Source: a virus
Lineage: Duplodnaviria; Caudoviricetes
Length of the DNA stretch: 64,000 nucleotides
Reading direction: 5' to 3' (one strand)
IMG/VR virus record: IMGVR_UViG_3300013105_000003
Location: 61,232-125,231 of that record
The notes beneath the pieces are model-generated. The model was not told the origin of the DNA. It saw nothing but the letters and a program-made list of their open reading frames with translations, and ran no database searches. Positions within the stretch are counted from its first letter, which is position 1, and every line of letters starts with the position of its first letter. Below are positions 4,209 through 54,642 of the stretch, piece by piece. The position numbers and the translations under genes are program-made.

Positions 4209-4325
4209 TATAAATATAGGGAGAATGGCTTCTTCCTGCATTCGCTAGTCAGTGTTAAACTGACAGAGCCAGACCCCTTGGGCAATAAGGTTATGATTGA
4301 TTCGTAGCTGTTCAAGGTCTCACTG

Positions 4326-4399
4326 GGGAGTATAGCTTAACTGGAAGAGTGTCCTGACTCCAAATCAGGAAGGCGTCTGTTCGATTCGGACTACTCCCG
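4326..4399 (+). tRNA. tRNA-Trp(CCA)
   Basis: Acceptor GGGAGTA/TACTCCC, anticodon arm CCTGA-CTCCAAA-TCAGG, T loop TTCGATT; CCA not encoded. Confidence 0.9.
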
Positions 4400-4400
4400 C

Positions 4401-4835
4401 ATGGTAGATAGAATGAGATATCCAGAACTTCCTTCTGCTTTAGTTGATAGGTCTGGTTACGATAAAGGAAGGTACCAGATTCTTCGCAATAGACTTCTGG
4501 CCCTTCTTGGAGGTGTCTGTGTTAGGTGTGGAACCGATCAAAACTTAGAGTTTGATCACAGGGACCCAAAGTCCAAAAAATTTACTATCATGGCTAAGTG
4601 GAATAACTATACTAATGAAGAGCTATATAAAGAAATAGAAAAATGCCAACTTCTGTGTAAGAAGCACCACATAGAGAAGACGAGAGAGGATATAGGAGTA
4701 CCTCACGGTGGAGGCGTCTCTGGTAAGAGAGACCCAGAGAGAGGGGATAGGTGTAGGTGTGACCTATGTAAAGCTAAGTACAACGAATACATGAGAGCAC
4801 TTAAGAAGAGACTAAAAGAAGAAAAGAAAAAATAA
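4401..4835 (+). CDS. HNH endonuclease inserted between two tRNA genes (start may be 4413)
   Basis: CVRCG...LEFDHRDP...KCQLLCKKHH plus C-terminal HG...CRCDLC. Confidence 0.85.
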   Translation: MVDRMRYPELPSALVDRSGYDKGRYQILRNRLLALLGGVCVRCGTDQNLEFDHRDPKSKKFTIMAKWNNYTNEELYKEIEKCQLLCKKHHIEKTREDIGVPHGGGVSGKRDPERGDRCRCDLCKAKYNEYMRALKKRLKEEKKK

Positions 4836-4840
4836 AACAA

Positions 4841-4922
4841 GCCCTCATATCAGCGCACTCTTATAAAGTGTCCATTACAATGCTGTATCTGGTGGAGGTT
4901 GGTTCAAGTCCAACTGAGGGTA
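4841..4922 (+). tRNA. Non-canonical tRNA-Ile(UAU)-like RNA lacking a normal D arm and carrying a 26-nt variable region
   Basis: Acceptor GCCCTCA/TGAGGGT, U8A9, anticodon arm GCACT-CTTATAA-AGTGT, T arm GTTGG-TTCAAGT-CCAAC; only TCAGC between A9 and the anticodon stem. Confidence 0.75.
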
Positions 4923-4923
4923 C

Positions 4924-5187
4924 ATGGAAGTAAGAGAAGACTTGGAAGTTATTGAACTTCTAGACTATAACTTTGCTATCCCCTGTGACCACGAAACATG
5001 TGATCTAGAGGCAGACTACTTATTAATTCTTCATTGCCCTTCCTGTGTTTATGAGGAAAAGTTCTTTATTTGTGATCCACACTGGGTCAAGGTATCTACT
5101 ACTAAAGGACTAATGGCTACCTGCTCTCGTTGTTCTGTGTATGGCTCCCTTGAAGATTTCTTGGTAGAAAGACGTTCACTAAAGTAA
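4924..5187 (+). CDS. Cys/His-rich putative zinc-binding protein
   Basis: CDHETC, CPSC, CDPH, CSRC. Confidence 0.7.
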   Translation: MEVREDLEVIELLDYNFAIPCDHETCDLEADYLLILHCPSCVYEEKFFICDPHWVKVSTTKGLMATCSRCSVYGSLEDFLVERRSLK

Positions 5188-54120: not shown

Positions 54121-54121
54121 G

Positions 54122-54212
54122 CAGGCATAATAGGAATCGAACCTATAACGGGGACTTTTACCCACTTGGTTAACAGCCAAGCGCAACACTTGCCAATAGT
54201 TGCCATATGCCT
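54122..54212 (-). tRNA. tRNA-Asn(GUU) with long variable arm and 5-bp D stem
   Basis: Acceptor AGGCATA/TATGCCT, CTTGG-CTGTTAA-CCAAG, extra arm GGG-TAAAAGT-CCC, T arm ATAGG-TTCGATT-CCTAT. Confidence 0.85.
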
Positions 54213-54333: not shown

Positions 54334-54558
54334 AATACTCTATTCTTTTGTAGTTACTAGTTTACCACACTGACTTACTTCTGTCAACCAAGTCCTAGAT
54401 TTTCTACTTCGTCAGGACTAAGCTGCTCCGTTGATTCATTGTCATACCAATAATCATCGTTATTTCTCTCTACTCTGAGAATATTTCCACTTTCATCTGT
54501 GTATACATTCTCAGTGTACAGGTACTGGCGAACTTGCAAGTATACTATCTTTTCCATG

Positions 54559-54642
54559 CTCTCCTGGGTGGACTTGAACCACCGACCCATGCCCGAGGCT
54601 AGTTTCCTAGGCAGGCTGCTCTACCGACTGAGCTACAGAAGA
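54559..54642 (-). tRNA. tRNA-like RNA with no anticodon (loop replaced by a GAAA-tetraloop hairpin)
   Basis: TCTTCTG/CAGGAGA acceptor, intact D and T arms, GCCTG-C-CTAG-GAAA-CTAG-CCT-CGGGC. Confidence 0.75.

Follow-up and report, generated by a model that had tools for sequence, protein, structure and literature searches.

Outside a few organelles, the cloverleaf is, to our knowledge, regarded as the universal connectivity of transfer RNA (tRNA). Permuted tRNA genes in the red alga Cyanidioschyzon merolae place the 3' half before the 5' half, and a circular intermediate then yields a normal cloverleaf. Other tRNAs lack the D arm altogether, as do nematode mitochondrial tRNAs (mt-tRNAs) and mammalian mt-tRNA-Ser(AGY) (PMC7609411, PMC4394434). 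Allo-tRNAs depart from the standard plan through 8/4 or 9/3 acceptor/T stems and a tRNA-Sec-like D hairpin that has a long stem and a tetraloop and sits at the normal position (PMC5389517; reviewed in PMC7609411). For isoleucine (Ile) tRNAs with a UAU anticodon, the canonical bacterial example is Mycoplasma mobile tRNA-Ile(UAU) (PMC3575796). Here we describe an 82-nucleotide (nt) tRNA gene at positions 4841–4922 (+ strand) of a 64,000-nt stretch of phage DNA, hereafter the window, in which one strand of the D-stem lies on the far side of the anticodon arm. These 64,000 nt make up the right-hand half of a complete IMG/VR virus record of 125,231 base pairs (bp) with terminal repeats and 44.8% GC.

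Two conclusions follow from comparing this gene with its relatives. That it encodes a selected RNA with a rewired D-stem is nearly certain. Judged from sequence comparison, it probably also works as a tRNA-Ile(UAU) that reads AUA codons with a non-cloverleaf core.

Layout of the rewired gene

The gene has ordinary acceptor, anticodon and T arms with no D hairpin between the first two, and the initial annotation had described the sequence accurately to the base. The acceptor stem pairs 4841–4847 with 4915–4921 through seven pairs, one of them G-U, and its 3' segment (4915–4922) ends in a discriminator A at 4922 that is invariant in the three Ile versions of the gene. The 5' strand is followed by U8 and A9 (4848–4849), both invariant in alignment A3, our gap-free alignment of these versions, and by a single spacer base (the segment spans 4848–4850). 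An A14-like base would be the partner of U8. In every version just 5 nt separate A9 from the anticodon stem, and in the window these are TCAGC (4850–4854). The anticodon arm (4855–4871) consists of a 5-bp stem (4855–4859/4867–4871) and the 7-nt loop CUUAUAA, with the anticodon UAU at 4862–4864 and with U33, A37 and A38. The loop is unchanged in three versions and the stem covaries. The T arm (4898–4914) closes a UUCAAGU loop with a 5-bp stem (4898–4902/4910–4914).

The second strand of the D-stem is found 3' of the anticodon arm. CAGC (4851–4854) abuts the anticodon stem and is the equivalent of the D-stem 3' strand (canonical positions 22–25). Its exact complement, GCUG (4882–4885), is the equivalent of the 5' strand (canonical positions 10–13) and has moved into a 26-nt variable region (4872–4897) that contains CCAUUA, GCUG, UAUC and UGGUGG. 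CCAUUA (4872–4877) is the 5' strand of an extra helix resembling a variable arm and pairs with UGGUGG (4890–4895). A linker, CAAU (4878–4881), of which AAU is invariant in A3, leads from CCAUUA to GCUG. Downstream of GCUG, a D-loop-like stretch of the form UA..UGGUG.. (4886–4897) runs directly into the T stem, and its 4890–4895 segment doubles as the 3' strand of the extra helix. UA, UGGUG and A56 are unchanged in three versions, which come from phages of 27% to 45% GC. No CCA is encoded in the gene; the 3' flank, CAUGG, is the start of the next open reading frame (ORF), ORF87.

Standard tRNA finders skip this gene, as had been anticipated. ARAGORN in standard mode reported six tRNAs in the window, 4841–4922 not among them, and relaxed settings gave the same outcome. 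Rfam at its gathering score likewise did not report 4841–4922.

Compensatory change across three versions

Relatives of the gene preserve its helices while changing their sequence. We reached related contigs through homologs of two ORFs downstream of the tRNA. Eight of these contigs (L358–L365), from different samples, have an 82-nt gene at the corresponding site, about 70% identical in sequence, and their ORF90 homolog is 54% identical. A motif scan recovered a third 82-nt version in an unrelated phage of 27% GC (L366, L386 and L388), between tRNA-Arg(UCU) and tRNA(CAU). The L358-type and L366-type versions are 66–72% identical to the window gene with zero indels. In every lineage the rewired gene is located in a tRNA cluster.

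Pairing across these versions far exceeds that of shuffled controls. We counted five helices: the acceptor stem, the D-like helix between the connector and the 4-mer beyond the anticodon arm, the anticodon stem, the extra helix and the T stem. Together, 98.8% of their cells are paired, compared with 79% in shuffles. Thirteen pairs have changes on both sides, a number reached by 0 of 500 shuffles, and sliding the partners by 1–3 columns lowers the paired share to 36–40%. The acceptor stem is 100% paired, with compensatory change at 5 of its 7 pairs and an unpaired discriminator. In the T stem 2 of 5 pairs are compensatory, and UUCAA in its loop is invariant. The rewired gene is more than a chance arrangement: the same 82 nt recur in two other independent assemblies (L261 and L357), and two diverged versions keep every helix by compensatory change.

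The D-like helix itself covaries. In matching alignment columns it is CAGC/GCUG, ACUC/GAGU or CCUC/GAGG, depending on the version, so that 3 of 4 pairs are compensatory and all are paired, against 25–42% when the partner is slid by 1–3 columns. The invariant C:G pair lies beside the anticodon stem and is the counterpart of the G10:C25 pair that ordinary tRNAs conserve. The proposal in the initial annotation that CAGC pairs with a relocated GCUG to rebuild the D-stem is supported by this covariation, which it had named as the check to make on homologs.

A pseudoknot involving the extra helix, also proposed at the outset, is the favored reading of the variable region. We favor it because the extra helix has compensatory pairs: among the three Ile versions the outer pair changes from C:G to G:C, and an Arg-type relative on contig L381 adds a second change, from A:U to G:C, in a helix that lies outside our covariance model R1. 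In computed free energy across the three sequences, the D-like helix lowers the total by 1.2–2.8 kcal/mol and the extra helix by 4.2–5.3 kcal/mol.

Relatives and an apparent natural replacement

The window gene is identical in phages whose surroundings have diverged. In L357 the tRNA matches at 82 of 82 positions while identity over the 600 nt downstream is only 70.5%. For comparison, an ordinary gene, tRNA-Pro, agrees between L357 and the window phage at just 46 of 77 positions. L261, from a separate metagenome, has the same 82 nt and is 97.5% identical overall, too close to be informative.

An ordinary tRNA-Ile(UAU) occupies the same site in one relative. L138 is the closest relative of L357, with 79% identity in the flanks, and at this site it carries a cloverleaf tRNA-Ile(UAU) whose acceptor stem and discriminator are identical to those of the rewired form. 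This apparent natural replacement suggests that the rewired and cloverleaf forms are interchangeable. The initial annotation had allowed that homologs with an ordinary D arm would point to a recent deletion. Such an arm occurs in one relative, L138, but the other relatives show the rewired form to be old and conserved rather than the product of a recent deletion. The L138 cloverleaf (L138:299–373) has its own peculiarities: its loop, CUUAUUA, puts U instead of A at position 37, and the anticodon stem is topped by a U.C mismatch. The 17-nt anticodon arm of the window gene recurs exactly in 16 other IMG/VR contigs, there within ordinary cloverleaf tRNA-Ile(UAU) genes whose acceptor stems are very similar, which suggests that the rewired gene descends from such genes.

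Two motif scans of 185,579 prokaryote genomes gave no match. Pattern scans with the connector plus loop, with the junction between the tRNA and ORF87 and with a motif from the upstream element gave unrelated sequence or nothing relevant, and a relaxed variable-region motif run over viral contigs found only L366 again. Protein scans of viral contigs with ORF87 and with ribonucleotide reductase found no relatives, and four remote ORF87 homologs (P0007, P0013, P0018 and P0021) had no adjacent tRNA. blastn with the three versions against isolated phages yielded nothing real; its hit to a Staphylococcus phage (H22) was a chance match. Model R1 applied to 59 further loci found ordinary tRNAs only, at 36 bits or less.

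Proposed fold

The layout can be described as a cloverleaf from which canonical positions 10–21, the D-stem 5' strand and the D-loop, have been moved behind position 43. The chain would then run from the acceptor strand through U8-A9, a spacer and the equivalent of 22–25 into the anticodon arm, and onward through the linker, the equivalent of 10–13 and UA..UGGUG to the T stem. The D-stem of an ordinary tRNA is stacked on its anticodon stem, and if strands 39–43 and 10–13 were joined, the first would continue into the second. In the rewired gene their equivalents are joined, through a 10-nt linker. CAGC/GCUG pairing would accordingly place a D-stem on the anticodon stem much as in ordinary tRNA, and pairing of CAUUA in the linker with UGGUG would make the fold a pseudoknot.

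By analogy with canonical tRNA structure, this RNA would adopt an L-shape with an elbow built from the conserved GG and a canonical T loop. U8, the UA after the relocated strand, the GG and the T loop would be what an L-shaped core with a D-loop/T-loop elbow needs. The conserved GG may lie within the extra helix, at the elbow, or alternate between them. Maturation would involve excision by RNase P, 3' processing and addition of CCA by a host enzyme. The host isoleucyl-tRNA synthetase (IleRS), for which A73, C4:G69, A37 and A38 are in place, would then charge the RNA with isoleucine, and the product would supplement AUA decoding for the phage.

Decoding and alternative explanations

Several lines of evidence favor a working tRNA-Ile. 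We favor this reading because three versions agree in anticodon loop, A73 and C4:G69, because the gene lies in tRNA clusters, because a cloverleaf form stands in its place in L138, and because the phage uses AUA with no other tRNA-Ile found by ARAGORN across its 125-kb genome. AUA makes up 17.5% of the phage's Ile codons, and we counted 244 AUA codons in 95 long ORFs. Outside the anticodon, the identity elements of E. coli IleRS are A73, C4:G69, U12:A23 and C29:G41. Of the three versions, the window alone has U:A at the equivalent of 12:23, and the pair at 29:41 differs between versions. The initial rationale, that a low-GC phage in a high-GC host needs extra AUA decoding, lacks support as stated: the phage has 44.8% GC, and the phage of 27% GC has the same design.

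A number of observations weigh against a rewired, decoding tRNA. The covariation sample is small, with three distinct Ile-type sequences and one Arg-type relative. Taken alone, the D-like helix reaches the best value possible for three sequences, yet 13 of 500 shuffles match it. The inner five of the six extra-helix pairs never vary among the Ile versions, and this invariance may reflect tertiary contacts instead of a helix. Identity between the window gene and L357 could stem from recent gene exchange rather than long-term constraint. As for decoding, the D-arm IleRS element U12:A23 is not conserved here, and an unmodified U34 could misread AUG. Neither a CCA-adding enzyme nor TilS was found encoded by the phage, and the whole pathway would then rest on the host.

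Two alternatives would make the gene a misreading or a relic. It is extremely improbable that the locus holds an ordinary tRNA whose register has been misread, with a start at 4857 and a GUA anticodon or with an intron, even though Rfam in E-value mode aligns RF00005 to 4857–4922 at 19.5 bits (cut-off 29), the mitochondrial mode of ARAGORN draws a Tyr(GUA) fold, and its intron mode offers a tRNA-Ile(tat) with a 246-nt intron. We rejected the GUA register for its weak stems, since it requires three G-U acceptor pairs and a mismatch in the anticodon stem, puts a pyrimidine at position 37 and has no genuine D stem. The intron alternative fell because it carries one mismatch each in the acceptor and D stems and because its 5' half (4584–4613) lies in an upstream ORF that is absent from relatives. 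Neither register is conserved, whereas the acceptor stem that begins at 4841 is kept through covariation in L358 and L366. Decay of a tRNA-Ile gene into a pseudogene, through deletion of the D arm and gain of an insertion, would account for the ordinary D arm in L138 and for rejection by standard finders. Conservation and covariation contradict it, and we consider it highly improbable: the gene is identical at 82 of 82 positions between flanks that are only 70% identical, and three lineages keep equal length, compensatory change in every helix including the new one, and no broken stem.

The other alternatives accept a functional RNA and change its role. A conserved tRNA-like RNA might not decode at all, and might act as a decoy or resistant stand-in for host defense nucleases that target tRNA, or as a regulatory or priming RNA that keeps tRNA-like ends. 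A non-canonical core may be handled differently by host enzymes that recognize the elbow or the D arm, and the same phage has other structurally odd tRNAs. Mukai et al. (PMC5389517) found most tested allo-tRNA(UAU) variants inactive in translation and possibly linked to mobile elements or toxin-antitoxin systems. We nevertheless judge a non-decoding role unlikely. The anticodon loop never varies and matches the loop of working phage tRNA-Ile(UAU) genes exactly; the features required by EF-Tu, RNase P and the CCA enzyme are retained in the acceptor stem, discriminator and T loop; L138 has an ordinary tRNA-Ile(UAU) at the same site; and a decoy for anticodon nucleases would not require a rebuilt D-stem. 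Charging by seryl-, leucyl- or tyrosyl-tRNA synthetase through a long extra arm, with AUA partly recoded or mistranslated, is very unlikely. Its appeal is that the 6-bp extra helix sits at the place of a class II long variable arm, and that serine is attached, irrespective of anticodon, to allo-tRNAs that combine a long variable arm with a UAU anticodon (PMC5389517, PMC7609411). In the rewired gene, however, the extra helix is no free-standing arm, because its loop takes part in the D-like helix, the acceptor/T stems are 7/5 rather than 8/4 or 9/3, and A73 and C4:G69 suit IleRS. A plain tRNA-Ile(UAU) also replaces the rewired form in L138, and with 244 AUA codons in 95 long ORFs general recoding would be costly.

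A possible broader scaffold and its implications

The rewired core may extend beyond isoleucine. At L381:860–938, a 79-nt relative combines this layout with discriminator G and an Arg UCU anticodon loop, CUUCUAA. Model R1 gives it 46.8 bits, and ARAGORN missed it. This sequence hints at a scaffold that is not bound to Ile, and we treat it as secondary evidence only because its anticodon stem is weak, with three Watson-Crick pairs and two A.C mismatches. Tentatively, the rewired core could be a general phage-borne tRNA scaffold that functions in translation whatever its anticodon, and it may evade host enzymes or defense nucleases that recognize the ordinary core while still serving synthetase, EF-Tu and ribosome. 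We regard this generalization as possible rather than probable. Were it true, no earlier example of a natural elongator tRNA with a non-cloverleaf topology would precede it outside organelles.

A working rewired tRNA would mean that the L-shaped core tolerates topological rearrangement, with a D-stem made from strands joined in another order. With it, the true demands that synthetases, EF-Tu, modification enzymes and the ribosome place on the D region could be tested in a natural case. Phage tRNA inventories and estimates of codon supply would be incomplete, with apparently 'missing' tRNA-Ile, because ARAGORN and the Rfam tRNA model at its cut-off skip such genes. Genetic-code engineering could also make use of the rewired core as an orthogonal scaffold.

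Genomic neighborhood

The rewired gene belongs to a tRNA cluster interrupted by a likely mobile gene. The cluster opens with an ordinary tRNA-Trp(CCA) at 4326–4400 (+), reported by both ARAGORN and Rfam. Between this tRNA and the rewired gene, a 144-amino-acid ORF (4401–4838, +) has an HNH-like Cys/His motif, recognized by eye, and returned no match in a Pfam search. L357 and L138 do not have this ORF at the corresponding place, and the L261 copy carries a 10-nt frameshifting deletion (window 4726–4735). From its sequence and distribution it looks like a mobile, decaying homing-endonuclease insertion. On the other side, ORF87 (4924–5187, +) encodes a small Cys-rich protein, starts 2 nt past the tRNA end and served as the synteny anchor for finding relatives. 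Inspection for signals around the rewired gene found no clear promoter or terminator. The ribonucleotide reductase closest to the phage's own, at 62% identity, is in the metagenome-assembled Actinomycetia phage DSL-LC01; this closest named relative by that protein has only Thr, Pro and Arg tRNAs.

A conserved element lies directly 5' of the cluster. About 105 nt long (window 4211–4325), it is present in all relatives, with copies at L261:1–115, L138:23–135 and L358:5328–5445. RNAalifold predicts three hairpins, with three pairs showing compensatory change and an invariant AUUGAUU loop, and the element matched no Rfam family. It could be an undescribed structured RNA or a processing leader.

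Other unusual tRNAs occur in this phage and its relatives. Directly upstream of the Ile gene, L138 (226–297) and L357 (1–54) have a Trp(CCA)-like tRNA that ARAGORN missed; its T loop is non-canonical, its D region is odd, and its ...GCCA end is encoded. At window positions 54121–54212 (−), ARAGORN calls a 92-nt tRNA-Asn(GUU) with a 6-bp anticodon stem and a long variable arm, which is unusual for Asn; Rfam did not report it at the gathering score. At 54558–54642 (−), ARAGORN reads an 85-nt tRNA either as Pyl(CUA) with two anticodon-stem mismatches or as Ala(AGC) with a 9-nt intron. This tRNA scores 44.5 bits with Rfam, has an extra CUAG-GAAA-CUAG hairpin in its anticodon region and may be a suppressor.

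Comparison with known tRNAs

We did not find this layout described in the literature, including reviews of non-canonical tRNAs, in a survey whose coverage was incomplete and which offers absence of evidence only. The nearest ordinary counterparts, the phage tRNA-Ile(UAU) genes (L002–L018), have the same 17-nt anticodon arm. With canonical tRNA-Ile(UAU), the rewired gene shares the anticodon loop, 7-bp acceptor stem, A73, C4:G69, 5-bp T stem, UUCAA, U8 and A9, and phage genes of the canonical form also sit in tRNA clusters. It differs in having no D hairpin before the anticodon stem, with the D strand and D-loop motif placed 3' of the anticodon arm instead. Positions 26 and 44 are missing, an extra helix would create a pseudoknot, and the gene falls below the Rfam cut-off.

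Allo-tRNAs share several traits with the rewired gene. Both are non-canonical, occur in prokaryotes or phages, come from metagenomes, follow the anticodon stem with a long arm and escape standard annotation, and UAU is a common anticodon among allo-tRNAs. The rewired gene, by contrast, keeps 7/5 acceptor/T stems in all versions and has no hairpin 5' of the anticodon stem. D-arm-lacking mt-tRNAs are similar in that a short connector replaces the D arm, and the mitochondrial mode of ARAGORN partly sees a D-replacement loop in the rewired gene. Their D arm is truly lost, however, their elbow motifs decay, and they work in an organelle with adapted factors, whereas the rewired gene has a rebuilt D-stem, invariant UGGUG and UUCAA, and a phage setting. 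The permuted genes of C. merolae likewise present tRNA segments in a non-standard order. Unlike them, the phage gene keeps its 5' and 3' ends in normal order, and it is the mature RNA itself that would be rewired.
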